A DNA stretch of 64,000 nt from Nitrospirota bacterium (GTDB taxonomy: Bacteria > Nitrospirota > Thermodesulfovibrionia > Thermodesulfovibrionales > Dissulfurispiraceae), in contig JBFLWF010000001.1 in the NCBI GenBank assembly GCA_040758355.1, positions 177,442 to 241,441 on the forward strand, in the 5' to 3' direction. The notes below the pieces were generated by a model. The model did not search any database and was not told the origin of the DNA. It saw only the letters and a program-made list of their open reading frames with translations. This document shows, piece after piece, positions 2,185 to 61,941 of the stretch. Position 1 is the stretch's first letter; each line of letters opens with the position of its first letter. The position numbers and the translations under genes are program-made.

Positions 2185-3417
2185 CTATATTTTTAATAGT
2201 ATATATAAAATTTTGTCTACCTCGTCTATGAGCTTCTTAAATAACCCTCCATGACTCTTTGAGTTTCCAAAAAGCTCTGTCCGCATTTCCTGTATTTCAG
2301 GGTCATCACACTTTTCGTATGTAATATGCCCGTTCTGCATTGCATATCTTTCTAAAATCAAGAGTCGTTTTGCATTTTCTATAAATGGCATTAACAATTC
2401 TTTTATTTTGTTTAAATCTGACTGCTGACTGCTGACTGCTGACTGCTGTTTTTTAATTATTTCCGCAATCTCTTTTATCATGGCGTATAATGTGCAGTAT
2501 TCGAGTCCCCTTACTCCCCTCCGCCACTGCAAAAGCATGGGATTTCTCCAGAACCAGAGAAAGTTGCGAGTGCCGAGTGATATTAAATCATCGACTGCTG
2601 ATTCAAGGTCGGCAAGAATAGATGGAGCAATGGAGTAATAGAGTGATGAGTTAAGTTTCTGGGCTTCTTCTGACTTTTGACCGGAGAGGTATTCCCAGAG
2701 ATTTTTTAAAACCCTTGCTCCGTTTGTGTCGTCTGGTGTATCAAAGTGTATTAATGATAAAATTACTTTGCCTTTTCCGAAACTTCCCTCCACCACTGAA
2801 GGCGCATCTTTTAATCTCCGGGGATTCAGATTGATTTTATAAATATCTTCCAATTCCGACCAGCCGCCGTTGGCTTCCACATCTCCTACATTCAAATCCG
2901 AACTGAACGAGTCGGAAAGTGCATCTCCATAAGTGGCGAGTATTTTTATGGGCGTATCATCGACTAAAAATTGTGAAGGCCACCATGCGTGAAAGATAGC
3001 TGATGGAGTGATGGAGTGATGGAGTGATGAGTTCCATATAGGATGTCCATTTACATTCAGATGAATACGGCCGCTGAAGCTCGGCACCCTCTGTTTTGTG
3101 GGCATCCTGTTTATATTTAAAAGCCCTATACCATCAAGCGTTGCAAGGCCTGCTCCTCCGCAGAAACCCAAATAATTACCGCCGCTATTCACAAAATTCT
3201 TTATTTCGCCGATGCCCTTTTCACCGAGGGTTTTCATCTTATTCGATGCCCATCCACCGGGCACAAAGAGCATCCTGTAATTTTTTAGTTCTCCTTTCTT
3301 TATATCATCTGAACGGATAAGTTCAAAAGAAAGATTACAGGCCTTCAGAGCCTTATATGACATCAATCCCCAAAGAAACGATTCGTCCCATAGAAAAGCA
3401 ATTGTTTTATTTACCAT
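2185..3417 (-). CDS. BPL_N / class-I glutamine-amidotransferase-like domain protein
   Basis: LFVPGG and GGNYLGFCGGA motifs, GKGKVIL..IH; start overlaps upstream stop (TAATG). Confidence 0.7.
   Translation of the reverse strand: MVNKTIAFLWDESFLWGLMSYKALKACNLSFELIRSDDIKKGELKNYRMLFVPGGWASNKMKTLGEKGIGEIKNFVNSGGNYLGFCGGAGLATLDGIGLLNINRMPTKQRVPSFSGRIHLNVNGHPIWNSSLHHSITPSAIFHAWWPSQFLVDDTPIKILATYGDALSDSFSSDLNVGDVEANGGWSELEDIYKINLNPRRLKDAPSVVEGSFGKGKVILSLIHFDTPDDTNGARVLKNLWEYLSGQKSEEAQKLNSSLYYSIAPSILADLESAVDDLISLGTRNFLWFWRNPMLLQWRRGVRGLEYCTLYAMIKEIAEIIKKQQSAVSSQQSDLNKIKELLMPFIENAKRLLILERYAMQNGHITYEKCDDPEIQEMRTELFGNSKSHGGLFKKLIDEVDKILYILLKI
2418..2448. repeat. (CTGACTG)4 heptamer array, in frame in the BPL_N gene (QQSAVSSQQS)
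   Basis: Read directly. Confidence 0.95.
3001..3030. repeat. (TGATGGAG)3+ octamer array, in frame (SSLHHSITPS)
   Basis: Read directly; related arrays at 2621-2650, 3414-3440, 4209-4240, 7781-7805, 16218-16245, 40057-40086. Confidence 0.95.
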
Positions 3418-5255
3418 TACTCCAGCACTCCATTACTCCACTTTTTTTCATAACCCCTCGGTGTAATCATATAGTTATTCAATGTAAATGTCTGAGAGTT
3501 TCCTATTATCACTGTTGTCTGCATGTCGATCTCGTAATTGAGCATGTCCCTCAGATTTGCGATAATAATCCTTTCATTTTCTCTCGTTGCACCCTTTACT
3601 ATGCCTACAGGTGTTTCGGTGCTCCGGTGTTTGAGGAATATAGCCCTTGCCTTATTGATATGCTCAGGCCTTCCCATGCTTTTGGGATTATAGAGGACTG
3701 TTACAAAATCAGACATCGCCGCTGCTGCAAGCCTTTTCTCAATCAATTCCCACGGTGTGAGTCTATCTGAAAGGCTTATTACTGCGAAATCATGCATGAG
3801 CGGCGCGCCGAGCCTTGCTGCGCAGGCATTCAGGGCAGATATACCGGGGATGACTTCTACAGCGATGCGTGATGCATTACTTCCTTTTATCTCATTACGC
3901 ATTACGGATAACGCATTACGGTCTTTAAGTATCTCAAACACCAGCCCTGCCATGGCATATATTCCTGGGTCTCCGCCGCTTATGACAGAAACGGTTTTTC
4001 CAGACAGTGCAAGCTCAACTGCCTTTTTGCACCTGTCAATTTCCTGCGTCATGCCGGTGGATACAACCTCTTTGTCTTTGATCAGTTCCTGTATCAAATC
4101 GAGATATGTTCCGTATCCAACAATAACATCTGACTTTCTTATGGCATCCTGTGCATAGGGGGTTATATGTTCAATGCTTCCGGGCCCGGTGCCGACAATG
4201 TAAAGCTTTGGAGTGATGGAGTGCTGGAGTATTGGAGCAACTAATTCAGCAACTGCGATTGTCACATTTCCGATTTTCTGCTTCGGAACAAGCAACTCCG
4301 AAGCGCCTGATGCAAGGAGCGCCGCAGGCTCTGAAACAGCATTTGCGCCTGTTGCCTTAAAGACTGCCTCTGATTTAGCCATGCCTTCAACTGAGTTTAG
4401 TTCTTCAGCCTTAAAGCCGGTAATTGTAAATCCATACCTTTGGGCGAATTTGATCAAGCCATCTTCTTTACACTTTATGTCAATAGTTGCGAGGGAGTGA
4501 ATGGACAGAAACGAGAGATTATTATTTTTAAGTACAGCCTTGACTGCTCCTTCTATCTCTTCTTCTGATGTCCCACTGTTGCATCCGATGCCTACAATAA
4601 GATTTTTAGGGCGAAGATAAAGCTGTCCTTTTACGCGGCATGAGCCTGTCGAACATTCTGCGGATGAGCATTGAGGTTCTTTTAAATAAATATCTTTTTT
4701 ATTTGTTATGATCGCATCTGCAAATCTGGGCTCGCTTACCTTGAGAAATTCATCAGGCAGAGATATTTCTATTTCTGAATATACGCGCAATGCGCCATTG
4801 TTAAGGTATCGCGTGGCAACATGCGGCATTATCTCCCAGTCTTCGATAGCGAGACTATTTTCTGATACCCATATATCTATCGCAGTCAGGTTATTTACAT
4901 CGGATGCGGTTGTTATAATTGCTTCGCCTTTCAAAAAATTCGCAATCTCTTTTGCCAGTTTGTTTCCTCCGCCTAAATGTCCGCTTAAGAGGCTTATGGC
5001 ATATTTCCCTTTTTCATCGAGAACAACAACTGCAGGATCTATTTTTTTGTCTTTTATTAAAGGCGCTATAGTCCTTACCACAATGCCTGTTGCCATGATA
5101 AATATGAGATTTTTGCATTCATTCCATATCTCAGGAACAACTTCTGATTTGAATTTTAAAATTTGAGTATCCTTATAAAGACTTTTAAGCCTTTCAGCGA
5201 GCTTCAATCCATTTTCTGTTATATAAAATATTGCGGTTTTATTTTCTATATTCAT
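3417..5255 (-). CDS. cbiGH: CbiG (cobalt-precorrin-5A hydrolase)-CbiH/CobJ (C17-methyltransferase) fusion
   Basis: IMATGIVVR..DPAVVV..SLLSGHLGGGN and VGIGC (CbiG); VGTGPG..SGGDPGIYAMA..LMHDF..ISLSD.LTPW..ITPRGY (CbiH). Confidence 0.92.
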   Translation of the reverse strand: MNIENKTAIFYITENGLKLAERLKSLYKDTQILKFKSEVVPEIWNECKNLIFIMATGIVVRTIAPLIKDKKIDPAVVVLDEKGKYAISLLSGHLGGGNKLAKEIANFLKGEAIITTASDVNNLTAIDIWVSENSLAIEDWEIMPHVATRYLNNGALRVYSEIEISLPDEFLKVSEPRFADAIITNKKDIYLKEPQCSSAECSTGSCRVKGQLYLRPKNLIVGIGCNSGTSEEEIEGAVKAVLKNNNLSFLSIHSLATIDIKCKEDGLIKFAQRYGFTITGFKAEELNSVEGMAKSEAVFKATGANAVSEPAALLASGASELLVPKQKIGNVTIAVAELVAPILQHSITPKLYIVGTGPGSIEHITPYAQDAIRKSDVIVGYGTYLDLIQELIKDKEVVSTGMTQEIDRCKKAVELALSGKTVSVISGGDPGIYAMAGLVFEILKDRNALSVMRNEIKGSNASRIAVEVIPGISALNACAARLGAPLMHDFAVISLSDRLTPWELIEKRLAAAAMSDFVTVLYNPKSMGRPEHINKARAIFLKHRSTETPVGIVKGATRENERIIIANLRDMLNYEIDMQTTVIIGNSQTFTLNNYMITPRGYEKKWSNGVLE

Positions 5256-5994: not shown

Positions 5995-6740
5995 TTCTTG
6001 ATTATCACCACCGAAAAATAGTTGAGGTCGCCTTCCTTGATGTCCCTTATATTTTTGAATATCTTTTCATCATCCATGCCTGCCCGTGAGACATAAACTG
6101 CATTATTCGTTAGATTCATTTCATTAAGAATAGTTAGAACCCTATCAAAGACCCTGTGAACCTTCATGAGAACGATGGTGTCAAACCTCTCCAGAGTCTC
6201 TTTTATGTTATCAGTGTAGGTTGCAGGAAGGATGGCGATTTTTTCATCAGCAAGGCTTAAGGACAGGTTTGCCCTTGCTGCTGCGGTATTTATGGATGAC
6301 ACGCCCGGAATTATTTCTATACTGAGTTCAGGATTGAGTTCGAGGAGCTTGTCGTATAAATAGAAAAATGTGCTGTAAATGGTGGGGTCTCCGATAGTTA
6401 TGAAAGCCATATCAGTGCCTTTATTCAACCTGCTGTAAACCGTCTCGATTGTTTCCTGCCATTTGGTATCAAGCATGCATAAATCATTTTTTTCTTTCTG
6501 ACCGCTGACTGCTGACTGCTGACTGCTTTTCGTTTTTCTCATGGGAAAATGTGCTTCGATAATCTCTTTGCCGTCGAGATTCAATGCCTTTTCCACAATG
6601 GATAATGCCATGCTGCTGCCTTCTTCCCTTCCCTTTGGAACGCAGATGCATTGAACCTCTTTAAAGATTCTCACTGCCTTCAATGTCAACAGTTCAGGGT
6701 CTCCGGGACCGACTCCTATGACATAAAGTTTTCCTGTCAT
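5991..6740 (-). CDS. cbiL: Cobalt-precorrin-2 C20-methyltransferase
   Basis: GVGPGDPELLTLKA, FPM, GDPTIYSTF, VLMKV, YFS. Confidence 0.93.
   Translation of the reverse strand: MTGKLYVIGVGPGDPELLTLKAVRIFKEVQCICVPKGREEGSSMALSIVEKALNLDGKEIIEAHFPMRKTKSSQQSAVSGQKEKNDLCMLDTKWQETIETVYSRLNKGTDMAFITIGDPTIYSTFFYLYDKLLELNPELSIEIIPGVSSINTAAARANLSLSLADEKIAILPATYTDNIKETLERFDTIVLMKVHRVFDRVLTILNEMNLTNNAVYVSRAGMDDEKIFKNIRDIKEGDLNYFSVVIIKK
6498..6527. repeat. CTGAC(C/T)G heptamer array, in frame in cbiL (SSQQSAVSGQ)
   Basis: Read directly; same unit as 2418-2448. Confidence 0.92.
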
Positions 6741-8017
6741 CTTTCACCTTTTATCACAAATACTGGATTCAATGCGCTCATGTGTCTTTTGCCTGCTATA
6801 TCCTTTGATCTCGATACGGATATCTCAGAGACTTCTGGCTCGAATCCATTGCTTTCAAGGTGTTGGATTGCCTCATTCAAAGTCTCTATGGTTGTGGCAT
6901 TTATGACAATATGTTTGCAAGTCATGCTGGAGATAAAATCTATTATCTCTTTGAGTCTTCCGCTACTGCCGCCAACAAACACCCTGTCGGGAGATGGAAG
7001 GTTTATCAAGGCATCAGGGGCTTCACCGCTTATTATTTCAATATTAAGTGAGTTAAATCTCTCCTTATTTTCTCTGATATGGTTAATTTGTTCTTTGTCT
7101 TTTTCGACAGCAAAGACCTTCAATTCCGGATATAATCTTGCAGCCTCTATTGATACAGAGCCGGAGCCTGCGCCGATATCCCAGAATACGCCCCTTTGCG
7201 GAAGCCTTAATTTATGTATCGTCACCGCCCTTACTTCGTCTTTTGTTATCAGTCCTTTGGAGTGGGAAATCTCGGTCTCTTTTAATCCAAAGGCGGTAGC
7301 TGATGACTGACTGTTGATGGCTGACCGCTGAATTATTACCACATTCGGCTCTGAAAACGTCATTCCTGCAATCTCTTCAGGCGTGCCTTCTGTAATTTTC
7401 TCATCTTGGTAACCCAGCCTTTCGCAGACATACATAACAGGCAATAGGCTATGGGCAATAGGCGATAGGTTAAGGATTTTGGCTATTTCTGAAGGATTGT
7501 TTTCTCTGTCTGTAAGTATGGCGACTTTATTATGTCTTTGCAGTAAAGATGGAATATCATTTATCGTATACGGCAATCTTCTTCTCTTTTCCGGATCAGG
7601 ACCTCCGTGAAGACTCATTAAAAATGCATCGTCCCACGGCTCTTTTATCCTTGAAAATGCAATCTGAACGCTCGATAAATCAGGCAATATCTCAACCATG
7701 TCTCTCCCAAATTCTTTAACTGCCCTTCTGCCTATTCCAAAGAACATCGGGTCTCCGGAGGCGAGAAGGACGACGGGGAATGATGGGGTGCTGGAGTGTT
7801 GGAGTAGTGAGTGAATGAATTCAATTGTCTCATTCACATTATTAATTACCTTTACCTTATCTTTAACTGCCTCAAATTCATCATAGCCTTTAAAGACTTC
7901 AAAGAGTCTGTTGGATGCAAGGATAACGCCTGCACGGGAAATAATCTCCCGTGCTTTCTTATCAAGTGGCTTATAGCCAATGCCTATTACATAGAGTTTA
8001 TTACTCATTATTGTCAT
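6737..8017 (-). CDS. cbiET: Bifunctional precorrin-6B C5,C15-methyltransferase/decarboxylase
   Basis: LASGDPMFFGIG, SLHG (CbiE); ITKDEVR, WDIGAGSGSVSIE, FVGGS, LNPV (CbiT). Confidence 0.93.
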   Translation of the reverse strand: MTIMSNKLYVIGIGYKPLDKKAREIISRAGVILASNRLFEVFKGYDEFEAVKDKVKVINNVNETIEFIHSLLQHSSTPSFPVVLLASGDPMFFGIGRRAVKEFGRDMVEILPDLSSVQIAFSRIKEPWDDAFLMSLHGGPDPEKRRRLPYTINDIPSLLQRHNKVAILTDRENNPSEIAKILNLSPIAHSLLPVMYVCERLGYQDEKITEGTPEEIAGMTFSEPNVVIIQRSAINSQSSATAFGLKETEISHSKGLITKDEVRAVTIHKLRLPQRGVFWDIGAGSGSVSIEAARLYPELKVFAVEKDKEQINHIRENKERFNSLNIEIISGEAPDALINLPSPDRVFVGGSSGRLKEIIDFISSMTCKHIVINATTIETLNEAIQHLESNGFEPEVSEISVSRSKDIAGKRHMSALNPVFVIKGER

Positions 8018-8780
8018 GGGCCCTCAAAATATATGTCTCCATTATCCAGCCGTTATTCTTTTTTGCCTCATTCCTTGTCCTTATAATCTCATCGAGGACT
8101 TCCTTTAGTCTGCCAGAAATGAGAATCTCTTCTCCTGTTCCGAGATAACCACCCCAGTAAATATGGAGGTCTGCATCCGTAAAGTTTCTGTAAGTTAGAT
8201 AATTATCCAGCAGCACCACACTATTTTTAACATCATCAGGATGAATCTCTTTCAGTCTCCTGCCCGTAGTGATAAGGATACTCTCGCCAATGAAATTCAG
8301 GGGAATCTTATGCCTTGCTGTCAATACCTGCATGCTTGTTATTCCTGGTATAACTTCAAATTCGAAATCTACCCGTCCTTCTTTAAGGATATAATTGAGT
8401 ATCTCTGTATGGCCGTCATAAAGGGAAGGATCGCCCCAGATGAGAATGGCGCCTGTTTCACCATCAGTTATCTCCTGTTTTATTAAGGTAGATATAATCT
8501 CTGCCTTTTGTTTTCTCCATGAGGCGACCTTTTCTTTATAGACCTCTAATTCCTTGCCACCCTTTTTTCTTTCAGGAATCTTTACTGTCATAACCCTGTA
8601 TCTTTCATCGGGCAGATACCTTTGTAATATCTCCTTCCTGAGTTTAACAAGGTCTTCGTTTTTTTCAGACTCCTTCTCAAGAATAAAAAAGACATTTACC
8701 TTTTTTAATGTATTTATAGCCTGAATCGTGAGATGTTCAGGATTGCCGGTACCTATGCCGATAAGATATATTTTTTTCAT
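8001..8780 (-). CDS. cobF: Precorrin-6A synthase (deacetylating), CobF-type C1-methyltransferase
   Basis: IGIGTGNPEHLTIQA, WGDPSLYD, IPGITS, ARHKIPLN.IGE, ITTGRRL, YWG.YLG, GWIMETY. Confidence 0.85.
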   Translation of the reverse strand: MKKIYLIGIGTGNPEHLTIQAINTLKKVNVFFILEKESEKNEDLVKLRKEILQRYLPDERYRVMTVKIPERKKGGKELEVYKEKVASWRKQKAEIISTLIKQEITDGETGAILIWGDPSLYDGHTEILNYILKEGRVDFEFEVIPGITSMQVLTARHKIPLNFIGESILITTGRRLKEIHPDDVKNSVVLLDNYLTYRNFTDADLHIYWGGYLGTGEEILISGRLKEVLDEIIRTRNEAKKNNGWIMETYILRAHDNNE

Positions 8781-10170: not shown

Positions 10171-10925
10171 ATAAATCCCATTGCAGTTATGAATAGCGCC
10201 GAGACAATAACTTCAGCCGGTTTGAAGGGCTTATGCCTTAACATCGGGATATTTCCGTCATAGCCCCTTTGAATCATTGACACTGTGATATTGTGGCTGT
10301 GCTCAAATGCCTTGAGCATCAGGGATCCGGCGAGGGTGCCGAATGAGCCGAGTCCACGCCTTATGTTTGAGTAACCGAGGCGATTTTTCTGTGCATTATA
10401 AATGACCATTGCATCCTCAAAGAGAACAAAAATATATCTATATGCAAACATCAATACCTCTATAAAACCTTTTGGAATTCTCAGCCATGAAAGTCCTGCG
10501 ATAAATTCCGTAAACGGCGTAGAAAATCCCATTACAGCAACAATGGAGACCGCGCCCAGGATTCTGATTGCAATCATCAACCCATCCATAAGTCCGTCTT
10601 TATATCCTGTTAAAGTGAGAAGTGAGAAGTGAGAGGTAGGAAGCGAGATGGAGAAAAGCACATCCTTCCCTGAAAAAAATAATTTCAGGAGGATTATTAT
10701 CGATGCAATGAAGACCGGCTCTGAAAATCTTAATAAAAAGACCTTCAACGGTATTCTCATCCACATGCAGAGAAAGAGGCATATTGATGTTACGAACAAT
10801 GGAAGGGCAAAGCCCTTATAGCTCAAGACCATTACAAGAATGGCAAGGCTGACAAGTATCTTTACCCTCGAATCGATCTTTGAAAGGATATGTTCTTTTT
10901 TGAAATATTCAGAAAATAGTTCCAT
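10158..10925 (-). CDS. cbiQ: Cobalt ECF transporter T component
   Basis: D.RVK start motif, STPF, YRYIFVL, AQKNRLGY, M..RGY; hydrophobic. Confidence 0.92.
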   Translation of the reverse strand: MELFSEYFKKEHILSKIDSRVKILVSLAILVMVLSYKGFALPLFVTSICLFLCMWMRIPLKVFLLRFSEPVFIASIIILLKLFFSGKDVLFSISLPTSHFSLLTLTGYKDGLMDGLMIAIRILGAVSIVAVMGFSTPFTEFIAGLSWLRIPKGFIEVLMFAYRYIFVLFEDAMVIYNAQKNRLGYSNIRRGLGSFGTLAGSLMLKAFEHSHNITVSMIQRGYDGNIPMLRHKPFKPAEVIVSALFITAMGFIWKI

Positions 10926-10929
10926 GCCT

Positions 10930-11256
10930 CTATTTGTTTCCTGTAACCTGTATTCTTGCTTCTGATTTCCGGCTTCTGCCCTCTGTCAGTGACCTCCAAT
11001 AATATCCTGCTGCAAATCCTCCTACTGCACCTGCGAGGAGAAAGACAAAGAGCAGCAGGTCTCCCTGGTCTGTGTTTATCAATGGTTCTTTTGCCTCCCT
11101 GCCATGCTCCTTTGCGAATTTCTCTATTACGGATTCGTCAACGCCGGACCATTTGTCAGAGGCAAAAACAACAGTGAATAGTGAACAGTGAATAGCGAAC
11201 AGTAAGAAAACAATCAAGAAAATTTGAAATTTGAAATTTGAAATTTGAAATCTCAT
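10930..11256 (-). CDS. cbiN: Small cobalt-transport membrane protein (CbiN-like)
   Basis: WSGVDE.VIE..A, GDLLLF.FLLAGA.GGF.AGY.W; lies between cbiM and cbiQ. Confidence 0.75.
   Translation of the reverse strand: MRFQISNFKFQIFLIVFLLFAIHCSLFTVVFASDKWSGVDESVIEKFAKEHGREAKEPLINTDQGDLLLFVFLLAGAVGGFAAGYYWRSLTEGRSRKSEARIQVTGNK
11171..11253. repeat. AGTGAA(T/C) and (AAATTTG)4 heptamer arrays forming the cbiN N-terminus
   Basis: Read directly. Confidence 0.93.
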
Positions 11257-12023
11257 GCTGTCACCTCCTCGGGCTTAAGGACACGCATCTTTACAAGAAG
11301 ATCTGGACGCTTTTTATAAAGCAGTACAACCATTCCTGCTGTCATTGCACCCTCAAGGATTCCGAGGGGTAGTTGTGTAGGTATGAATGCAATGAGTATC
11401 TTCCAGAAAAGCGGCATGAATGGAGAGTCTCCCTTTATGCCTGATGCAAGCTCAACCGATGTGGTGAAGTATGTTGCCCAGTCTGCAAACAATCCTGCCA
11501 TGAATCCCGAGATTGCCATGTTTATTTTCAGTGAGCGCAATGCCCTGAAGGTCAAGAATCCTGCAAAGGAGCCCATTACGCCCATTGATACTATATCTGC
11601 GCCCCATGTGCTTAGACCTCCATGAGCAAGGAATAATGCCTGAATAAGCAATGCCACTGCCGTAATCAGTATGCTGATTGCCGGTCCTACAAGTATACCC
11701 GATATTCCTGTGCCGCAAGGGTGCGAGCATGTGCCTGCGGTCGGCACGGGTATGGGCATGCACGAGATGATAAAAACAACTGCTGCCATGAGTCCCACAA
11801 GTGGTTTGAATGACAGGTCAATTGAAGATTGCTTTTTTAGTTTATACAATCCCCATGCTACAAAGGGTGCTGCAACGACTGACCAGAATAATGCCCAGTT
11901 AAATGGCAATATGCCCTCTGAAATATGCATGGCGTGGGCATCAGAAACAGTAAACAGTGAATAGTGAATAGTGAATAGTGATAAAAAAATTTGAAATTTG
12001 AAATTTGAAATTTGAAATTTCAT
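11253..12023 (-). CDS. cbiM: Cobalt ECF transporter S component with N-terminal leader
   Basis: AHA|MHISEG, GTCSHP.GTG, LLIQALFLAHGG, F.PTQ.PL.I.EG. Confidence 0.95.
   Translation of the reverse strand: MKFQISNFKFQIFLSLFTIHYSLFTVSDAHAMHISEGILPFNWALFWSVVAAPFVAWGLYKLKKQSSIDLSFKPLVGLMAAVVFIISCMPIPVPTAGTCSHPCGTGISGILVGPAISILITAVALLIQALFLAHGGLSTWGADIVSMGVMGSFAGFLTFRALRSLKINMAISGFMAGLFADWATYFTTSVELASGIKGDSPFMPLFWKILIAFIPTQLPLGILEGAMTAGMVVLLYKKRPDLLVKMRVLKPEEVTA
11947..12020. repeat. AGTGAAT and (AAATTTG)4+ heptamer arrays forming the cbiM leader
   Basis: Read directly; near-identical architecture to 11171-11253. Confidence 0.93.
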
Positions 12024-13030
12024 AGTCCCTCCTTTGATATTTTTAATAATGCATTTATAATTGCTACTGCCACTGGCGTGCCACCCTTTCTGCTTAAATT
12101 TGTTATAAACGGAAATTTCTGTGCTGCAAGCAGTGCCTTTGATTCCAATGCCTTGACAAAGCCAACAGGGACACCGACGACGAGAATGGGTGAATGGGTG
12201 AATAGGTGAATAGGTGAATTGAACATTTCGATAACTTTCAATAATGCGGTCGGCGCATTGCCTATAGCGATGATGCCTATATTGTTGTTTGCCTGCAATG
12301 CCTTTTTAATGGCTATTTCAGAACGGGTCTTGCCCGTGTCCTTTGAGAGCCTGACAACATCTTCATCATTGATATTGCAGATAACCTTTCCGCCATATGG
12401 CTCAAGCCATCTTTTGATAATTCCAGTTTTTACCATTTCAACATCAGTAAGGATGTTCTTGCCTGCTTTTATAGCATCTATTCCTGTCCTTATGGCATCT
12501 GGATGGAACATGAGCGTATTCTTGAATTCAAAGTCGGCAGTGGAATGTATTACTCTTTTTATAATGGGCAGTTGCTCCGGCGGCATATCGCTTAAATCGG
12601 CCTCCTCAGAGATTATCTCAAAGCTCCTCTTCTCAATATCATGCGGTTTTAAACCATTTGCTGTATGTATCCTTTCCATCACCACATGCACCAATTTTTC
12701 GTGGATGCCGAGTGGCTCTGTGTAAATGAATTCCCTGTCAGGATACATATCTTTTGCCTCCTTTATTATCTCAGGGATATCCTTCGTGACATGCATGCCG
12801 CTGCTTAAAAAATAGGGATGGATGACTATCCTTTTGGCCCCGCTAAGAACACACTCCTTGATTGCGTCCGCAATCCCGGGCTCTGCAAACTGAAGGTATG
12901 CGACCTTTACACAGTTGTTGTTGCAGTTTGGATGAATTGCACTGTGCAGAAGCCTGCCTGTGAGTTCGATGTTGTTGGCGTCTTTTTTAGGACTTCCGTG
13001 TCCTATAAGTATTATGTTCTCCATTATCAC
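12020..13030 (-). CDS. cbiXC: CbiX (sirohydrochlorin cobaltochelatase)-CbiC (precorrin-8X methylmutase) fusion
   Basis: IGHGS, PYFL..G.HV..DIP, EPLG.H (CbiX); IE.RSF.II, R.IH.TADF, IGNAPTAL, GVPVGFV, KGG (CbiC). Confidence 0.92.
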   Translation of the reverse strand: MIMENIILIGHGSPKKDANNIELTGRLLHSAIHPNCNNNCVKVAYLQFAEPGIADAIKECVLSGAKRIVIHPYFLSSGMHVTKDIPEIIKEAKDMYPDREFIYTEPLGIHEKLVHVVMERIHTANGLKPHDIEKRSFEIISEEADLSDMPPEQLPIIKRVIHSTADFEFKNTLMFHPDAIRTGIDAIKAGKNILTDVEMVKTGIIKRWLEPYGGKVICNINDEDVVRLSKDTGKTRSEIAIKKALQANNNIGIIAIGNAPTALLKVIEMFNSPIHLFTHSPILVVGVPVGFVKALESKALLAAQKFPFITNLSRKGGTPVAVAIINALLKISKEGL

Positions 13031-20521: not shown

Positions 20522-21067
20522 CTACTTTATTTTTAAAGGTATTCCTGCGGTCACAAGATATACTTCGTCTGCTAAGGCTGCCATCTTTTGATTTAAATAG
20601 CCGGATAAATCTCTGAATCTCCTTGATAATGCATTGTCAGGAACGATTCCAAGACCGACCTCGTTCGAAACAGTGAATAGTGAACAGTGAATAGTGGATA
20701 AGGAAGAAATAAAAGACTCTGTTTCTGCTTCAACATCCTTATTATTAAGCATCAGATTCGAAAGCCATAGTGTCAGGCAGTCAACAAGGATTACATCATA
20801 GCTTTTATGAATGTCAGATATCAGCGTCGAGATATTCAGCGGCTCTTCGAAGGTTGTCCACTCACCTGGCCGTTCTTTTTTGTGTTTCTTAATCCGTTCC
20901 TTCATCTCATCATCCAGAGCCTGTGCAGTAGCAATATATGCCTTGCGCATGGAGGAGATTGCATCTCCTCCATGAACCCCCTCTTTAGAAGGGATATAAT
21001 TATTGGCAAGCTGCAGGGCAAACCTGCTTTTTCCGCTTCTCGCACCGCCTATGATGAATGTTATCAA
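20522..21067 (-). CDS. cobU: Bifunctional adenosylcobinamide kinase/guanylyltransferase (TTG start)
   Basis: [38 protein letters not shown]. Confidence 0.95.
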
Positions 21068-46870: not shown

Positions 46871-47050
46871 CTTGTCGTTCAAATATTATTTATCAATTAA
46901 TAAAATATGCTTGACAAATTAATCAAATGATGTTAGCTTAAAAGCAGAAAGAAATATATACAGGGGGACTGCTTTGGATGAACTAAGGCAGAAAATCAGG
47001 AAATTCCTCATATCCCCTCTGCTTTCCGTGCAAAGAAAGGAGTGATTAAA

Positions 47051-48049: not shown

Positions 48050-48121
48050 AAATTTGTTGATGCTTTGCTAAAATATGCTATTCTTTTTAAAGCTAATTTA
48101 TCCTTTCTTCTAAGGTGATAA

Positions 48122-51339: not shown

Positions 51340-52067
51340 AAAGTAGCATAGCTGTTTGTAAAATCAATAATGGCTATCCCACTCCAGCAGAGCTTATCAG
51401 TTGTGAAATCAACACATTACAGTATTTTAGAGATACAACTTCGTTTTGCAAGTCCTTCACAGCGTTATATAGCGATTCTTATAACTTTCTTGCAAAATAT
51501 CACGATCAAATAAAAAACAAGAGTCTTCGAGCGGTTAGGTTTGAATCACAAATCGATGATATTAGGATAAATACAAAGCCCGGCACTGCGCATATTGGCG
51601 TTATAATTACTCAGAAAGATTCAAAAACTTATGATCAATTAAGTTACTATATTGCAATTAGTGATAATAGTGATCCAGAAGCATATTACATCAGAAAATT
51701 CCATTTTGATTACACCCTCATTGACCCTGCACGAAAACAGCCACATCCCATCTTTCATTTACAATACCCTGGTGAGTTTTCTGAGCGACTACGAAATTCT
51801 AATATCAAACATGAGCATTTGGCTGAATGGCTGTCAGAACCCAGATTGCCATTTAGCCCGATGTCTCTTGCATTATTAGTAAACCTTGTATTCAAAGAAT
51901 TTCCAAATGAGAATACACATAATGTAATTGAAGATAGTCGTTGGAGAGATTTAATCCGAAAAAATGAAAAACTGCTCCTTGAACCGTATTATAAAAATTG
52001 CCATAATTTTATTTCTCAGAGATCACCGGACATGCTAATAACAAACGATTTCTATTATGGTCTATAA
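51336..52067 (+). CDS. Hypothetical protein, DUF2290-like motif pattern
   Basis: KFHFDY..PHPIFHLQ..G..PRLP..PM; ATGA overlap. Confidence 0.5.
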   Translation: MKSSIAVCKINNGYPTPAELISCEINTLQYFRDTTSFCKSFTALYSDSYNFLAKYHDQIKNKSLRAVRFESQIDDIRINTKPGTAHIGVIITQKDSKTYDQLSYYIAISDNSDPEAYYIRKFHFDYTLIDPARKQPHPIFHLQYPGEFSERLRNSNIKHEHLAEWLSEPRLPFSPMSLALLVNLVFKEFPNENTHNVIEDSRWRDLIRKNEKLLLEPYYKNCHNFISQRSPDMLITNDFYYGL

Positions 52068-53607
52068 AAACATATCCGACATAAAACGCAATGGTGTTTA
52101 TTATACTCCTCCTCATCTTGCTGAGTTTTTAGCCAAGCCGCTCGTTAATAGAGCAGATATCTCTGTATTTGACCCTGCTTATGGCGATGGGTCTCTTTTA
52201 TTAGCAGCTGAAAACATAATGCGGCGAAAAAATTCCCCCCACAAATATGGTCGAAATTTTTATGGCTGCGACAGATCGCCTGTCAACGGTTTATTAAAAC
52301 ACTTGCCAAGCTCTAATCTTATGGAGATAGATTTTTTTGAATATCCGGCAGAGAGAAAATTTGATATTATTTTAATGAATCCCCCATATGTTAGACATCA
52401 CCTTATTGATGACGCTAAAAGACAAAAATATCAGAAGATTATTTCAAAACAATGCAGACTGAAGCTATCGTCAGACCTATGGGCTTACTTTCTCATAAAG
52501 TCCACAACGCATTTAAAAGTAGGTGGAAAGATTGGTGCCATTTTACCATGGTCGTTCTTACAAGCCGGTTATGCATCTGATGTTAGAGCATGGCTTGCAG
52601 ACAATTTTGAAAAAATACAAGTTCTCGTACTTAACTCCGAGTATTTTGATAATGCGCAAGAACGAGTCGTATTAGTGTGGTTGGAAAATTACGGACAAAC
52701 AGTACGATCTATACGGATGGCATTTTCTCAGCATATTAGCGACGATGTATCATACTTCGATTTGAATAGAACAAACTGGACATCTTACACTGTTTTATTC
52801 TCCTCTGATTTTGATATTGAATCAATTCTTGTCAAATACATCGAACGATATGATTTTCAGCGATTTGGTGAATTAGCAACTATTAGGATAGGAGTTGTTA
52901 CAGGCGCTGATGATTATTTCATTATTAGTCCTACCGATGCACAAAAGTATGGCTTTTCAAAGAGCCAGCTAATACCAATCTTTACATCATCAAAACAGTT
53001 TTCTGGGCTTTTCCTTAATGGGAACAGACCACCAAAAAATTTATTAAGACTTTCATTGGAATGCTATAAAAACCATAAAGACTACATTATAAAAGGAATA
53101 AAAGAACGATATCATCTTAGAGCACATTCTGTCCGTAGAAACCCATGGTATTCTGTAGATGTAGGCCCAACACCACATGCTTTTTTCCCTTATCGTGCAA
53201 CCTTGATCCCACATTTAATATTAAATGATCGACATGCACAGTGCACAAATTCCATACATCGTATTTATTTTAACAACTTGTCTCAAAATGCCATAAAGTG
53301 GATTCAAATAAGCTTATTGTCTGTTCCTGGCCAGCTATCATTAGAAGCATATTCGAAGATTTATGGAAATGGTGTATTAAAAATTGAACCGAGCTCTTTA
53401 AAAAAATCGATTGTTTTCAAAAGTGATGCCGCGGAAATAAATTCAGTTTATACTAAAATTTCTGAAATGATTTCTTTAGGACAGAAGAAGGAGGCTATGA
53501 AGATTGCAACCGACTTTATTGATAATCAGTTGGATATACCTATCAGGGTCTCAAAAAGGGCATATGCAGCACTGCATGAACTTCAGAGCCGTAGATTAGA
53601 AAGATAA
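52057..53607 (+). CDS. N6-adenine DNA methyltransferase with C-terminal target-recognition region
   Basis: G.YYTP, DPAYGDG (SAM), NPPYVR, IG.VTGAD.YF, G.G.LK.EP. Confidence 0.9.
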   Translation: MVYKNISDIKRNGVYYTPPHLAEFLAKPLVNRADISVFDPAYGDGSLLLAAENIMRRKNSPHKYGRNFYGCDRSPVNGLLKHLPSSNLMEIDFFEYPAERKFDIILMNPPYVRHHLIDDAKRQKYQKIISKQCRLKLSSDLWAYFLIKSTTHLKVGGKIGAILPWSFLQAGYASDVRAWLADNFEKIQVLVLNSEYFDNAQERVVLVWLENYGQTVRSIRMAFSQHISDDVSYFDLNRTNWTSYTVLFSSDFDIESILVKYIERYDFQRFGELATIRIGVVTGADDYFIISPTDAQKYGFSKSQLIPIFTSSKQFSGLFLNGNRPPKNLLRLSLECYKNHKDYIIKGIKERYHLRAHSVRRNPWYSVDVGPTPHAFFPYRATLIPHLILNDRHAQCTNSIHRIYFNNLSQNAIKWIQISLLSVPGQLSLEAYSKIYGNGVLKIEPSSLKKSIVFKSDAAEINSVYTKISEMISLGQKKEAMKIATDFIDNQLDIPIRVSKRAYAALHELQSRRLER

Positions 53608-53757
53608 TTCATGATTTTTTCCAATGAAAATGTGAGATGAAAGAAAGCAACAGTGGTAGGAGGAGTACCGCTCGCATCTACCCCCAAATATCCCTGTAGT
53701 CTTAATCGACCTCTTTGTAGAGATTGTCAAAGTTTCTTATGTGATCTCTGGATCCCC

Positions 53758-53808
53758 CTACCTGCACTCCCCTATTCTCTCCCCGCTCATGCGCTGTGTC
53801 ATCTTCAT
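53758..53808 (-). repeat. 51-bp direct repeat copy 2 (encodes MKMTQRMSGERIGECR*)
   Basis: Read directly. Confidence 0.85.
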
Positions 53809-53840
53809 CTTGCCCTGTCCCGGCTGGTTGATTTAGTCTG

Positions 53841-54248
53841 TTAATTTATATAAGCCGCAAGGCTTTCCACCTTTAAGCCTGAATGCTTCGCAATTGTATC
53901 GAAATGCGAGTCTGCGTGCAAAAGGATAGCCTTTTCCTGTATGGCTAAAGCTGCGATAAGGATGTCGGTATAGGGGACATTTACTCCTTTTCTTTTCAAA
54001 TCAAATGCAAGTTTCGATGCGCTATCCCACAGGGATTTGGTCGTTTCAATATAATGAAGGGCGTCAAGCCTGCTTTTAAGCCTCTCATATTCTTTTTCTG
54101 TTTTAGCACCGCCTAAAAGCTCAAGCGCAATAATTCCATTGATTGCAACATCGCTTTCCGTGAGGATCTGTTCGATTCTTTCTTTTACAAAGGGATGGAA
54201 ATTCTTTTTAAGGGCAAATATCCATGCAGATGTATCGATAAGCACCAT
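53841..54248 (-). CDS. vapC: VapC PIN-domain toxin
   Basis: VLIDTS.WI, EL..GA, D.LIAA.A, L.H.D.HF. Confidence 0.92.
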   Translation of the reverse strand: MVLIDTSAWIFALKKNFHPFVKERIEQILTESDVAINGIIALELLGGAKTEKEYERLKSRLDALHYIETTKSLWDSASKLAFDLKRKGVNVPYTDILIAALAIQEKAILLHADSHFDTIAKHSGLKVESLAAYIN

Positions 54249-54250
54249 GC

Positions 54251-54469
54251 CTATTTTTCAGCCCTTTTCTTTTTTAATTCCTCTAAAGAAAGGTCAATAT
54301 CGAATGTCCCGAGTTCTTGCCTGAGAAGTTCCCGATTTTTCATCCGGAGGAGTTCTCTCAATCCTTTCTCAATGACCTCTTTTTTTGTTTTAAGGCTTGT
54401 TGCACGGAGGGCCTCTTTTATTAATGTGTCATCTATTAGGACAGTTGTCTTTCCCATATACATCTCCAT
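54251..54469 (-). CDS. vapB: VapB antitoxin
   Basis: KTT..IDD.L..EA......TKKE.I..GL; immediately upstream of vapC. Confidence 0.88.
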   Translation of the reverse strand: MEMYMGKTTVLIDDTLIKEALRATSLKTKKEVIEKGLRELLRMKNRELLRQELGTFDIDLSLEELKKKRAEK

Positions 54470-54542
54470 AAGGCATATTATAATACATATTATGATACAT
54501 CTAAAGGATATGTCAAATATAAAAATATTTAGCCACTCAACT

Positions 54543-54599
54543 CTACCTGCACCCCCCTATTCTCTTTCCGCTCATGCGCTGGGTCATCTTCGTCTTCAT
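54543..54599 (-). repeat. Direct repeat copy 3 (encodes [21 protein letters not shown] overlaps trm112 stop)
   Basis: Read directly. Confidence 0.85.
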
Positions 54600-54763
54600 T
54601 TTATTTCAACCGCCTCGTCAATGAGCATTACAGGAATGTCGTCTTTTATCGGATACATGAGCTTGCATTTTTCGCAAATCAGACCGCTTTCTTCTTTGTA
54701 AATCAGATCCCCTTTGCATTTAGGACAGGCAAGGATTTCGAGCAATTCTTTGCTTATAGCCAT
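54596..54763 (-). CDS. Trm112/YcaR-family protein (55 aa), absent from the ORF track
   Basis: [19 protein letters not shown]...YPI.DDIPVML..EA. Confidence 0.92.
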
Positions 54764-56827: not shown

Positions 56828-58954
56828 TTGATGACTAACGTAGAGCTTGATATTAAAGGAAAAAGTCTGGTTATAGAGACAGGACAGATGGCGAGGCAGT
56901 CGGGCGGCGCTGTGGTTGTAAAGTATGGAGATACTGTTATTCTTGCTACGGCAGTTGCGGATAAAAGGGTAAAAGAAGGGCTGGATTTTTTCCCGCTTAC
57001 TATTGATTATCAGGAGAAGACATATTCAGCAGGCAAGATACCTGGGGGCTTTTTTAAGAGGGAAGGCAAGCCTTCCGAGAAAGAGGTCTTGACATCCCGC
57101 CTCATTGACAGGCCTATCAGGCCATTATTTCCAAAGGGATTTTATTCAGAGACACAGGGAATAGCATCCGTACTATCCTACGGCAGCGAAAATGTGTCGG
57201 ATATACTTGGAATAATCGGCATGTCTGCGGCAGTTCACATATCGGATATCCCCTTTGACGGTCCTGTGGGTGCGGTCAGGGTTGGCCGGCTTAAGAATGA
57301 TGACGGCGGCAATTTGATCATTAATCCTGATTTGTCTGAAGTGGAGAATCTCGATCTTAATCTCGTTGTAGCAGGCACAGAAGATGCGATAATCATGGTG
57401 GAAGGCGGAGGCTCCGAGGTATCGGAGGCCCTGCTTCTTGAGGCCATTGATTATGCCCATCAGGAGATCAAGAGGATAGTGGCTCTCCAGAATGAATTAA
57501 GGAGTTTGGTCGGAAAGGAAAAGAGGGGATTGATCCCTGTCACAGAAAAGCCTGAATTTAAAAGAGAGATAAGGGCGTTTGTCGCTGACAGATTAAAAGA
57601 GGCTATCCGTATACCCGGCAAACAGCGCAGGCAGGAGGCCCTCGATATAATACTCGAAGACGCAATAAAGCATTTTAATACACTCGAAAATGGAGAAAAA
57701 TTCTTTGGGGATTCGACAAAGGATCTCACAAGGGATATAGCCAATATATTCGATGATTATGAAAAAGAGATTGTAAGGAACATGATACTTCAGGAGGGCG
57801 TGAGGGCAGACGGCAGGAAGTCCGATGAGATAAGGCATATATCGTGCCACATGGGGTTTCTTCCAAGGGCCCACGGTTCAGCGCTCTTTATAAGGGGCGA
57901 GACACAGTCCCTTGTTGTAACCACCCTCGGCACTGCTGAAGATGAGCAGAAGATAGATTCCCTCGAAGGGGAGACTTACAAGTCATTTATGCTCCATTAT
58001 AATTTTCCACCCTTCAGCGTGGGTGAGGTAAAACCCCTCCGCTCACCTGGAAGAAGGGAGATAGGCCACGGGGCCCTCGCAGAAAGAGCAGTGAAATATG
58101 TGATCCCTAAGAAAGAGGTTTTCCCTTATACCATAAGGATTGTCTCGGACATTCTTGAGTCCAACGGTTCATCTTCTATGGCAACGGTATGCGGCACTAC
58201 GCTTTCGTTGATGGATGCAGGCGTTCCAATATCAGCGCCTGTTGCAGGCATTGCAATGGGACTTATAAAAGAGGAAGAAAAGGTTGTTGTCCTGACAGAC
58301 ATCCTCGGGCTTGAAGACCATTTGGGCGATATGGACTTCAAGGTTGCAGGAACAGAGAACGGCATTACAGCTTTCCAGATGGATGTAAAGATAAGCGGCG
58401 TAAGCCGCGAAATCCTCCGGAACGCCCTTGAGCAGGCGCGGCTTGGAAGGCTTCACATCCTCGGCAAGATGAAGGAGGCAATGCCTTCTCCAAGGAAGGA
58501 GCTTTCTCCTCACGCACCGAGGATATACACCATGCAGATAAAACAGGACAAGATAAGGGATGTCATAGGCACCGGAGGAAAGGTAATAAGAGGGATCATA
58601 GAGCAGACAGGCGTTAAGATAGATATAAACGATGCAGGAGTTATCAATATAGCATCTCCTGATGAAGAATCGGCTAAAAAGGCGATAGATATTATAAGCG
58701 GCATTGTTGCAGAGGCAGAGCTCGGAAAGATATACATGGGAAAAGTGGTTCGCATAGCCGATTTCGGGGCATTTGTGGAGATACTTCCGGGCGTTGACGG
58801 ACTTTTGCATATATCGCAGATATCTGAAAAGAGGATAGCAAAGGTCACGGATGAGCTGAATGTCGGTGATGAGGTTCTGGTAAAGGTCATCGAGATAGAC
58901 AATCAGGGAAGGGTCAGGCTCAGCAGAAAAGAAGCGATGCGAGAGAAATCCTAA
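56828..58954 (+). CDS. pnp: Polyribonucleotide nucleotidyltransferase
   Basis: FFPL..DY.E, GKIPGGF.KREG, HYNFPPFSVGE, SNGSSSMA, GDMDFKVAG, KH and S1 domains. Confidence 0.98.
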   Translation: MMTNVELDIKGKSLVIETGQMARQSGGAVVVKYGDTVILATAVADKRVKEGLDFFPLTIDYQEKTYSAGKIPGGFFKREGKPSEKEVLTSRLIDRPIRPLFPKGFYSETQGIASVLSYGSENVSDILGIIGMSAAVHISDIPFDGPVGAVRVGRLKNDDGGNLIINPDLSEVENLDLNLVVAGTEDAIIMVEGGGSEVSEALLLEAIDYAHQEIKRIVALQNELRSLVGKEKRGLIPVTEKPEFKREIRAFVADRLKEAIRIPGKQRRQEALDIILEDAIKHFNTLENGEKFFGDSTKDLTRDIANIFDDYEKEIVRNMILQEGVRADGRKSDEIRHISCHMGFLPRAHGSALFIRGETQSLVVTTLGTAEDEQKIDSLEGETYKSFMLHYNFPPFSVGEVKPLRSPGRREIGHGALAERAVKYVIPKKEVFPYTIRIVSDILESNGSSSMATVCGTTLSLMDAGVPISAPVAGIAMGLIKEEEKVVVLTDILGLEDHLGDMDFKVAGTENGITAFQMDVKISGVSREILRNALEQARLGRLHILGKMKEAMPSPRKELSPHAPRIYTMQIKQDKIRDVIGTGGKVIRGIIEQTGVKIDINDAGVINIASPDEESAKKAIDIISGIVAEAELGKIYMGKVVRIADFGAFVEILPGVDGLLHISQISEKRIAKVTDELNVGDEVLVKVIEIDNQGRVRLSRKEAMREKS

Positions 58955-59020
58955 ATCCGAAACCCTAAATTCTAAACGAGCAAACTCGGTTTGGGATTTA
59001 GATTTTGGAATTTAGGGTTT
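58946..59020. repeat. Inverted pair of heptamer arrays (AAATCCT-like / AGGGTTT-like) forming a hairpin after pnp
   Basis: AAATCCT AAATCCG AAACCCT AAATTCT .. TGGGATT TAGATTT TGGAATT TAGGGTTT. Confidence 0.85.
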
Positions 59021-59032
59021 GTTTCTAAATCT

Positions 59033-60277: not shown

Positions 60278-61941
60278 TGCTTCGGGAATTAAGGATCAAA
60301 AACTTCACCATCATCGATGACCTTTCCATAAATTTTGAACCAGGCCTCAATGTCCTCACCGGTGAGACAGGCGCCGGAAAATCGATAATTGTGGATGCAA
60401 TCGGTCTCATCCTCGGCGATAAGGCCTCTCCTGATATGATAAAGACAGGGAGCGGGGAGTCGAGCATCGAGGCATACTTTGACAATAAAAACCATCCGCT
60501 CCTTGAAGCTCTTGATATAGACAGCGATGACGGAGTAATGATAAGAAGAAACATATCTGCCCAGGGTAAAGGAAGGGCGTATATAAATGACACATCCGTA
60601 AGCCTCCAGACACTTGCCGGCATCGGTGAAGGCCTCATCGATATCCACGGGCAGCACGAACATCAGGGACTTTTAAAAAAGGACAACCACCTTCTTTTTC
60701 TCGATAGCTTTGCAGGATTAACAGAGGATGCTGCTTCTTTGCAGGCTTTATACAACGAGGTTATCAGCTTGCGGAATAAAGTAAATGAACTGAAGGAGCG
60801 CATCCGCGAGAGGAACCAGAGGATAGAATTCCTGAGATTTCAGATAAATGAGATAGAATCGGCCAATTTAAAGAATGGGGAAAGAGAAGCCATTGAAGAG
60901 GAAATGAAGATACTCCTCAATCTCAGCAGACTCAAGGAGTCTTCAGAAACAGCATACAGCCTGATTTATGATTCTGAAGGCTCATGCCTTGAGCAGATGT
61001 CCAATGCTGCATCTAAAATAAGGGATATGCTCAATTTTGACCCTGATGCAAAGGAACTCCTCGATATTGTTGAATCAACGATTCCTCAGATAGAGGACGC
61101 TGCATTGCTCCTCCGCAGGTTTAAGGATAAGTATGATATAGACCCTCAAAGGCTCACGGAACTGGATGAGAGGCTTGATCTGATAAAAAGGATCGAGAAG
61201 AAATACGGCAAAGGTGTCGATGAAATACTGAAATACAGGGACAAGGCTGAAGAAGAGATGAAGGGTCTCGAATATGCTGATGAACAGCAGGAGGCATTAG
61301 AAGCAGAGCTTAATGCAAAAGACAACGAGCTTAAGGCCATGGCAGGAGGACTTTCCCAAAAAAGAGGGGCAACTGCAAAGAAGATGGAGAAGATGGTTGT
61401 CTCGGAACTCCATGAACTCGGATTTCAAAAGGCTGATTTCAAGGTGGATATAAAAAAGAAAGATGCCGTTACAGCAAGCGGCATCGATGATGTGGAATTT
61501 TTATTCAGCGCAAATCCAGGAGAGCCGGCTAAATCGTTGATAAAGGTTGCATCAGGCGGTGAACTGTCGAGGATTATACTTGCGCTGAAATGTATTGAAA
61601 TAAAAGAGGCGATAGGCAATAGGCTAAAGGCTAAGGGCGAAAGGACACTTATCTTCGACGAGGTGGATGCAGGCATAGGCGGTATTACTGCACAGCATGT
61701 GGGAAAGAGGCTGAAGGCCATTTCGAATAATTATCAGGTGCTCTGCATTACCCACCTGCCGCAGATAGCAGCCATGGCTGACAATCATTTGAAGGTCGAA
61801 AAGGTTATGGGCAAGGATGCGGTAAAAGTTAGTATCGAGCCATTGACTGGTAATAAGAGGCAGGATGAGATTGCGAGGATGCTGAGCGGAAAGATCACGG
61901 ATGTGTCGCTTAAACATGCAAAGGAGTTGCTCGGCGTTTAA
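60274..61941 (+). CDS. recN: DNA repair protein RecN
   Basis: TGETGAGKS, IHGQH, ASGGELSR, FDEVD.G, ITHLPQ.A, EIARML.G. Confidence 0.97.
   Translation: MMLRELRIKNFTIIDDLSINFEPGLNVLTGETGAGKSIIVDAIGLILGDKASPDMIKTGSGESSIEAYFDNKNHPLLEALDIDSDDGVMIRRNISAQGKGRAYINDTSVSLQTLAGIGEGLIDIHGQHEHQGLLKKDNHLLFLDSFAGLTEDAASLQALYNEVISLRNKVNELKERIRERNQRIEFLRFQINEIESANLKNGEREAIEEEMKILLNLSRLKESSETAYSLIYDSEGSCLEQMSNAASKIRDMLNFDPDAKELLDIVESTIPQIEDAALLLRRFKDKYDIDPQRLTELDERLDLIKRIEKKYGKGVDEILKYRDKAEEEMKGLEYADEQQEALEAELNAKDNELKAMAGGLSQKRGATAKKMEKMVVSELHELGFQKADFKVDIKKKDAVTASGIDDVEFLFSANPGEPAKSLIKVASGGELSRIILALKCIEIKEAIGNRLKAKGERTLIFDEVDAGIGGITAQHVGKRLKAISNNYQVLCITHLPQIAAMADNHLKVEKVMGKDAVKVSIEPLTGNKRQDEIARMLSGKITDVSLKHAKELLGV

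Follow-up and report, generated by a model that had tools for sequence, protein, structure and literature searches.

Heptamer repeats have been reported in bacteria, with a bias towards four units, convergent pairs and a strand polarity (PMC4692102, PMC4679880). The TAACTGA repeats of Beggiatoaceae (PMC4679880) and the GGGAATC repeats of Xanthomonas (PMC4692102) are examples. PMC4679880 uses neither the term "four helix" nor the term "intervening sequence". In the intervening sequence of the Coxiella 23S rRNA, heptamers are located in an arm of the S23p stem-loop (PMC4990558). Rickettsia palindromic elements lie in frame in genes, are about 150 bases long and encode a conserved peptide (PMC10969869). 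The DNA uptake sequences (DUS) of Neisseria occupy permissive sites of core genes (PMC2397512). [quoted passage not shown] The present study deals with short tandem arrays of 7–9-base units in a 64,000-nucleotide stretch (the window, G000:C1:177442–241441) of a Nitrospirota genome (G000, GCA_040758355.1), whose size is 2.77 Mb at 99% completeness. What is new is that repeat content is replaced slot by slot, and exchanged in short patches, within housekeeping genes; the arrays concerned occur genome-wide and are linked to four-helix-bundle cassettes.

The slot survey comprised 44 genes of the window together with orthologues from as many as 40 relatives, a total of 543 kb including the window copies. 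It showed 188 arrays at 49 sites, and codon shuffles gave 0. The window was compared with relatives at the 23 sites where the stricter detector calls a window array, and a unit was counted as unrelated when it had at least three mismatches or a different period. An unrelated unit was found in a relative at 19 of the 23 slots, and within the genus at 13. These slots are also occupied by arrays in the single-contig genome G003. The array sites in coding sequence are fixed, and it is their content that is replaced. A preliminary description of the window had taken the arrays for lineage-specific insertion scars, and the alignment of orthologues contradicts this: the slots are refilled with other units and are not one-off events.

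The cobQ set, found by a pattern from the window cobQ, contained 139 segments (110 distinct), nearly all from records whose titles name Nitrospirota, Thermodesulfovibrionales or Dissulfurispiraceae. Families were defined by single linkage. On the minus strand, slot S424 (16738–16770) held 10 families and 27 units in 110 segments, slot S386 (16828–16861) held 17 families and 33 units in 106 segments, with inverted pairs frequent, and slot S242 (17266–17303) held 12 families and 22 units in 101 segments. One length dominates at two of the three slots (66 and 60 bases). Nested, paired and three-family alleles occur (nested and three-family: L005, L180, L190, L196), and a strict test found two alleles exactly three units shorter than the matching array allele. 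Small palindromes are nested inside the cobQ arrays of relatives (L134, L189, L190, L196, L203).

The arrays had been thought to add loops of 7–10 residues to proteins, which holds for some sites and not for others. Measured against the commonest array-free length, where some "array-free" orthologues may themselves be decayed arrays, the net gain was 10 residues at dxs site 1, 11 in cbiL and 5 in cbiQ, and it was 0 at dxs site 3, cbiB-241, cobU-118 and cobQ-238. At dxs site 1 (29416–29448, plus strand), 14 of the 22 orthologues in which no array was called have the short form, and G001 has another unit. The 7-mer array of cbiL (6498–6527, minus strand) is replaced by unrelated 8-mers in G002 and G006. 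The 7-mer array of cbiQ (10613–10634, minus strand) has the same unit in G001 and G002, and no array was called in 10 of 12 orthologues. At dxs site 3 (30537–30570, plus strand), the array replaces a linker of about equal length, and E. coli DXS is only about two residues shorter there. Several arrays overwrite a linker rather than lengthen it, where the label "linker" or "loop" rests on alignments, domain boundaries and the comparison with E. coli DXS. At dxs site 2 (29972–30001, plus strand), relatives carry nested and paired arrays.

Slot turnover was also seen between very close strains. The contigs of run X2 are identical to the window at 11900–11956 and 12020–12202, with 132 bases between these flanks versus 63 in the window. 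This is the cbiM slot (11956–12020, minus strand), where two arrays form the N-terminus of CbiM. X2 shows one difference in 16900–17238, yet other arrays at all three cobQ slots, as deduced from joints to other window arrays. Run X1, which may be the source of the window itself, and runs of small share were left out. Runs X4 and X5 share one 1132-base contig and were counted once; in this single data set, the span across two slots changed from 171 to 195 bases. The independent run X12 carries the window's own alleles across 16741–17196 with 2 differences.

Three cobQ pairs that are 99.7, 99.6 and 98% alike differ at one slot. Among disjoint cobQ pairs at least 97% alike, 3 of 27 slots had changed versus 0 of 63 ordinary windows, and among those 93–97% alike, 10 of 18 slots versus 9 of 47 windows. 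Slots are more readily detected and less constrained than ordinary windows, which biases this comparison in their favour. In the comparison of G000 with G002, 19 of 44 slots had changed. Synonymous differences in the 8 codons beside changed slots amounted to 65/201 (0.32), compared with 44/287 (0.15) beside unchanged slots and 0.18–0.22 elsewhere. G004 agrees with this flank pattern, and G001 is less clear. Slot alleles 93–100% alike were found in cobQ backbones only 72–80% alike (7 pairs), and one identical cobQ tract of about 110 bases is shared between distant backbones. The size of the replacement tracts is about 60–120 bases.

The scan for periods 7–9 that the preliminary description had called for showed that the arrays extend over the whole genome. 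Tandem Repeats Finder (TRF) returned 539 rows of period 7–9, which merged into 530 arrays. A second detector of our own found 562 arrays in G000 and 8 in one shuffle. Perfect arrays of at least three copies numbered 110 at period 7 and 18 at period 8, with 0 and 0 in one trinucleotide-block shuffle. According to our own simple gene calls, 254 of the TRF arrays lie inside 185 genes, 155 are intergenic, 85 run across gene ends and 36 lie near gene ends. Array-rich genes include hypF, folC, murD, nifEN, mfd, cobN, rimO, smc and carB (11 of 12 tested could be named), and recJ and comEC themselves carry arrays. The arrays are clustered: 83 of 235 10-kb bins are empty, and the variance is 3.8 at a mean of 1.7.

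The copy number is maximal at 4–5, alike inside and outside genes. The stop-free unit is in sense in 229 of the 254 internal arrays, as had been claimed; 185 of these have a stop on the other strand, and 44 are stop-free on both. The TGA core attributed to most units is therefore common and not universal. In seven unit families inspected, the orientation was mostly the stop-avoiding one. Because the copy-number peak is the same inside and outside genes, the array size is intrinsic, and frame and strand are a residue of purifying selection. Both the constancy of the frame and the bias of TGA towards one strand are largely due to selection. TRF found no such array in dnaK, guaB, guaA or window 46.3–56 kb, as the preliminary description had reported for these genes and the accessory island, but an array is present in guaA of the relative G006.

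The vocabulary of the arrays is restricted. The 298 heptamer arrays fell into 93 classes, versus 237–267 classes for random local words, and the commonest class (TGACTGC) had 41 members versus a random maximum of 6. Runs of variant units common to arrays at unrelated loci numbered 13, against a permuted mean of 4.2 (0 of 500 permutations reached 13). The proposal that the same unit recurs in unrelated genes, genome-wide and not by local slippage, is borne out by these classes and shared variant runs. Arrays of the same unit have ragged ends and unshared flanks.

Four-helix-bundle genes framed by such arrays were found elsewhere in the genome and in relatives, as the earlier suggestion of repeat-flanked cassettes of this kind had anticipated. 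G000 has six TIGR02436 (S23p) matches and a single GxxExxY gene. Five of the six matches, as well as the GxxExxY gene, are flanked on both sides by inverted 7-, 8- or 9-mer arrays (by TRF or by eye), and the sixth match is weakly framed. These are ORFs between complementary tandem arrays, that is, repeat-armed S23p/TIGR02436 cassettes. The GxxExxY gene is located at C7:41192–41622 with inverted 9-mer arrays around it, and at C20:34614–34712 a four-helix-bundle gene is truncated to 33 model positions with both arms retained. Contig C1, which holds the window, has no TIGR02436 match, and the window arrays are solo or gene-less pairs that enclose no cargo gene. In 27 of 40 loci that were among the best-scoring cassettes of relatives, both arms were called, and 24 of these 27 had complementary arms. 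The cassettes and arrays presented here are situated within protein genes or between them and not in 23S rRNA; the rRNA genes of G000 were outside this survey.

A comparison of filled and empty sites was possible at the cobC/cobQ junction (window 18015–18045, minus strand), which is empty in the window. G003 has a complete armed four-helix-bundle cassette there, in which cobC ends in the left arm and cobQ starts just before the right arm. The junction is also empty in G001, G011, G017 and G022, and array remnants are present in G006, G037 and G048. No target duplication was seen at the filled site against the empty sites. The left junction shows a few matching bases, an observation on one junction rather than a systematic survey. 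The four units of each arm pair in the folded RNA (z −1.98). The G003 cassette (L068:1070–1500) is translationally coupled at both ends, and an overlapping start places its right arm in the reading frame of cobQ.

The arrays of G000 were also compared with cassette arms. Close pairs include 164 of the 562 arrays in G000; 53 pairs are G-rich then C-rich and 3 are the reverse, with 12 mixed-family pairs among these. Of 438 G000 units, 287 are at most one mismatch from an arm unit, versus 135–169 (about 145) for random units. An exact 20-mer is common to a coding array and the cassette flank of a relative in 5 of 227 cases (random 0–1). Regarding other cargo families, 10 of 2387 genes of up to 1.5 kb had matching arrays at both ends; 3 were helix-bundle genes and the rest were ordinary genes between neighbouring arrays. 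This test is insensitive: three of the six TIGR02436 matches went undetected, and so did the GxxExxY gene.

On balance, we favour the reading that the arrays are likely single arms of S23p/TIGR02436 cassettes, written into tolerant linkers and likely exchanged as short DNA patches at fixed slots. About four copies of a 7–9-base word, G-rich and then C-rich, frame four-helix-bundle genes as a hairpin, and a gene junction may have the cassette or lack it, as at cobC/cobQ. Pieces the size of an arm, without cargo, may be inserted elsewhere in a single step, through annealing at short stretches of a few matching bases; insertion of a complete cassette would disrupt essential genes such as dxs. Survivors keep the frame, carry the stop-free strand in sense and lie in a tolerant linker, probably as a result of purifying selection. 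The same few slots are reused, probably because survival is limited in these ways. Slots are refilled: new arrays or small palindromes appear inside old ones, some alleles are shorter by exactly three units, and entire slot alleles (60–120 bases) recur in genes that are distant in other respects. The patches may be carried by natural transformation in which tracts are very short. The outcome would be a neutral and fast turnover of 10–20 residues in housekeeping enzymes.

Several observations speak against this reading. An enzyme that writes arrays was not found, and neither a flanking signature common to same-unit arrays nor fixed ends were seen. Most arrays are solo (398 of 562), and 222 of 227 coding arrays have no exact 20-mer in the 40 sampled cassette flanks. 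Coding arrays were called in 16 of the 30 genomes that have a TIGR02436 match and in 3 of the 11 that lack one; these genomes are related, and the amount of DNA sampled from them differed greatly. The link to cassettes across genomes is weak. Distant pairs that share a unit share little flank. In cobQ pairs less than 83% alike, near-identical slots numbered 12 of 15,329 and near-identical ordinary 60-base windows 24 of 37,329. The slots are thus no hot spots of long-range transfer, with no excess over ordinary cobQ windows, and short-patch mosaicism is therefore general and the slots need not be targeted. RecJ and DprA are reported to be among the functions that keep SPDIR very low in Acinetobacter (10.1101/2023.11.22.568220), and G000 has the genes for both.

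Near-identity of ordinary 60-base cobQ windows between genes less than 83% alike, for example L228/L235 (loci L133–L243), is an array-independent case of short-tract exchange across species. Loss of mismatch repair or of RecJ was considered as a permissive state and rejected, since mutS and recJ are both present in G000, as is dprA.

A possible, though rather doubtful, explanation is that each helix-bundle subfamily has a word of its own, which it binds on RNA or single-stranded DNA. DNA bearing that word would then be preferentially taken up, protected or annealed, and a passing cassette would convert slots to its word, comparable to the spread of DUS in Neisseria. By eye, cassette proteins of similar N-terminus carry similar arm words in different genomes, competence genes are present, and slots outpace neighbouring windows in the close cobQ pairs counted above. 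Arrays lie in core genes and none in the accessory stretch of the window, a distribution also described for DUS (PMC2397512). However, long-range transfer at slots is not in excess, and tolerance and easier detection could explain the close-pair difference. The commonest units of G000 are not those of its resident cassettes, and DUS are conserved at their sites whereas the arrays here are replaced. In its bold form, which we hold to be similarly doubtful, four-helix-bundle proteins that recognise their own word would constitute a selfish sequence-writing system acting by short-patch conversion across species and genus boundaries. If this were true, passing cassettes would keep rewriting linkers of 10–20 residues in hundreds of housekeeping enzymes, without a transposase or a reverse transcriptase.

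It is less probable still that cassettes or gene-less hairpins integrate and then lose the cargo and one arm by recombination or slippage, so that a scar stays and repeated rounds change the word. Complete, truncated and gene-less forms do occur side by side, and the nested and three-family alleles as well as the two alleles shorter by exactly three units would fit such a history. The cargo-bearing intermediate would, however, interrupt dxs, murD, folC and smc. These genes are essential, and no cargo-bearing cassette was found inside a gene at any of the 49 sites. Taken alone, this route gives no account of near-identical alleles in distant backbones.

Templated synthesis, in which a DNA break would receive some four copies of a short RNA template from a reverse transcriptase or polymerase, had been raised as an option and is very unlikely. 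The array size, constant at about four copies whether within genes or outside them, would suit it, and the four-helix-bundle family is related to Avd, the accessory protein of diversity-generating retroelements. However, RVT_1 had no match in the 99% complete G000, and presence of a reverse transcriptase is not tied to array load: the array-rich G002, G016, G019, G022 and G048 have no RVT_1, and G007 has six and no called array. Shared irregular units and flanks indicate copying of existing DNA.

Ordinary polymerase slippage that amplifies a local 7–8-mer, as proposed for long simple sequence repeats, is at least as improbable. Three-unit length steps occur, and slippage is a published proposal for the excess of heptamers (as summarised in PMC4679880). 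The arrays agree with long simple sequence repeats as defined by tandem units of 5–11 bases beyond chance length, with heptamers commonest; a local-slippage origin, which is a proposed cause outside that definition, does not apply. The restricted vocabulary shared between loci argues against local slippage, as do the shared variant order and the pair polarity, and unit and period changed wholesale between strains with identical flanks. Slippage is refuted as the origin and may still act on existing arrays. Mis-joining of repeats in a metagenome-assembled genome, suggested by an array length close to that of assembly words and by several Logan contigs that end at arrays, is practically negligible and already refuted for the slots, as X12 independently shows the window alleles, the frames are open, G003 has its slot arrays on a single contig, and some contigs bridge a replaced slot on both sides.

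Within the window, every array position listed in the preliminary description was confirmed in the open frame of the gene named, with gene names checked against NCBIfam and Pfam. Most positions lie at or within a few bases of TRF calls; those at 3865, 7300, 39906, 42530 and 61607 are decayed or partly called and were confirmed by direct reading. The BPL_N-domain gene (minus strand) carries an in-frame 7-mer array at 2418–2448, a decayed 8-mer array at 2622–2643 and an 8-mer array at 3001–3029, with unrelated units at the last in G001 and G003. In cbiGH (minus strand), an overlooked 8-mer array runs across the stop codon (3419–3440), a decayed array pair lies at 3865–3920 (other units in relatives), and an 8-mer array marks the CbiG/CbiH domain junction at 4208–4237, with unrelated units in G001, G006 and G019. 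Three arrays lie in cbiET (minus strand): a decayed 7-mer array at 7300–7335 (by eye, end approximate), a 7-mer array at 7439–7469 and a decayed 8-mer array at 7784–7805.

Two arrays of different units form the N-terminus of CbiN (11170–11251, minus strand). The N-terminal leaders of CbiN and CbiM are largely array-built, and their words vary among relatives and strains. Also on the minus strand, cbiXC has an 8-mer array at 12184–12219 (unrelated 7-mers in five relatives), cbiA a 7-mer array at 13180–13211, and cbiB a 7-mer array at 15752–15780 with a net length of 0 against the commonest array-free length and an 8-mer array at 16218–16246. The 9-mer array of cobC (18495–18525, minus strand) is replaced by unrelated 8-mers in four relatives, and cobU has a 7-mer array at 20669–20700 (minus strand). 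A previously overlooked in-frame palindromic insert resembling repetitive extragenic palindromic (REP) sequences lies in cbiA at 13676–13725 (minus strand, ends approximate), in a slot that holds arrays in relatives. REP-like palindromic repeats of at least two families were seen in frame or adjoining arrays in this cbiA slot and at C2:32577, C15:24108 and C24:8669.

On the plus strand, a 7-mer array, likewise overlooked before, runs across the grpE stop codon (35955–35982). A decayed array pair at 39906–39983 and an 8-mer array at 40057–40085 lie in rsmE, and a 7-mer array lies at 42530–42568 in the N-terminus of the PIN_5/TIGR03875 (HARP) gene. A decayed 7-mer array is present in recN at 61607–61644 (other units in G002). 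The remaining overlooked array is an oppositely oriented pair between pnp and the M16 peptidase gene (58946–59021, no strand assigned).

Rfam found a tmRNA, a cobalamin riboswitch and one tRNA only in the window; the riboswitch (21176–21382) lies ahead of the operon, and the tmRNA is at 21677–22020. A cobF-like gene (TIGR02434, above cut-off) at 8001–8780 lies inside an otherwise cbi-type cobalamin operon. The HARP gene is convergent with a TIGR01209 RNA ligase gene (42499–44277). An accessory stretch of lower GC content at 47042–54700 contains MqsA-type, restriction-modification and VapC genes and is without arrays. Between the M16 peptidase gene and recN, G001 (L250) has about 2.9 kb that are missing from the window; read by eye, this segment contains a restriction-endonuclease-like ORF together with a small pair resembling a toxin-antitoxin system. 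A separate dispersed repeat of about 50 bases lies 3′ of recN (61937–61990), with many copies in G000, G002 and G004.

Two old puzzles, the bacterial heptamer repeats and the S23p four-helix-bundle family, meet here with measurable slot replacement, and the origin of the repeats becomes testable with defined alleles. The exchange of very short tracts reaches far beyond the species boundary. The slots map linkers that tolerate arbitrary sequence in cobalamin, isoprenoid, cell-wall and repair enzymes. Such loops can mislead indel-based phylogeny and strain typing. In the literature searched, largely without subscription papers or supplements, no description of unit replacement at fixed coding slots was found.

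Among known systems, Borg repeats are similar in being fast-changing tandem repeats within ORFs. They are described as of independent origin and as perfect amino-acid repeats (PMC9879509), whereas the units here are common across loci and genomes, and 7- and 8-base units cycle through the frames. SPDIR likewise produces short replacement patches, and the tracts seen here are in the range of its patches of up to about 100 bases. It is reported as extremely rare in wild-type Acinetobacter and not linked to repeats (10.1101/2023.11.22.568220), whereas the replacements here are frequent and recur at fixed sites. DUS resemble the arrays in that they are short motifs, lie where core genes are permissive, are rare in DNA of foreign origin, arise by recombination and form dialects (PMC2397512, PMC3630211). 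G000 has competence machinery (ComEC and DprA) and no single motif conserved across strains. DUS are described as one conserved motif per species with a known surface receptor, whereas many tandem words with turnover occur here.

Like Rickettsia palindromic elements and miniature inverted-repeat transposable elements, the arrays are small and have become fixed in frame in metabolic genes that are unrelated to one another (PMC10969869). They differ in being about 30 bases long, with no common ends or duplication seen and with content exchanged at fixed slots; ends are ragged and flanks unshared, and one filled and empty site was available for the duplication. G000 has two Y1_Tnp matches. The intervening sequence of Coxiella has a four-helix-bundle ORF in a stem-loop, whose 5′ arm contains tandem heptamers of varying number (PMC4990558), as the cassettes here do in kind. 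Unlike it, these cassettes lie between protein genes (coupled in G003), and the window arrays are cargo-free single arms in genes. The arrays also resemble the bacterial heptamer repeats, with which they share 7-base units, about four copies, convergent pairs, a G-rich strand after stops, a C-rich strand before starts and a stop-free orientation in ORFs (PMC4679880, PMC4692102). The published heptamers are described as one or few units, mostly intergenic, and read as regulatory, as G-quadruplexes or as slippage products, whereas here there are dozens of 7–9-base words, about half of the arrays lie in genes, and one word gives way to another at a site.

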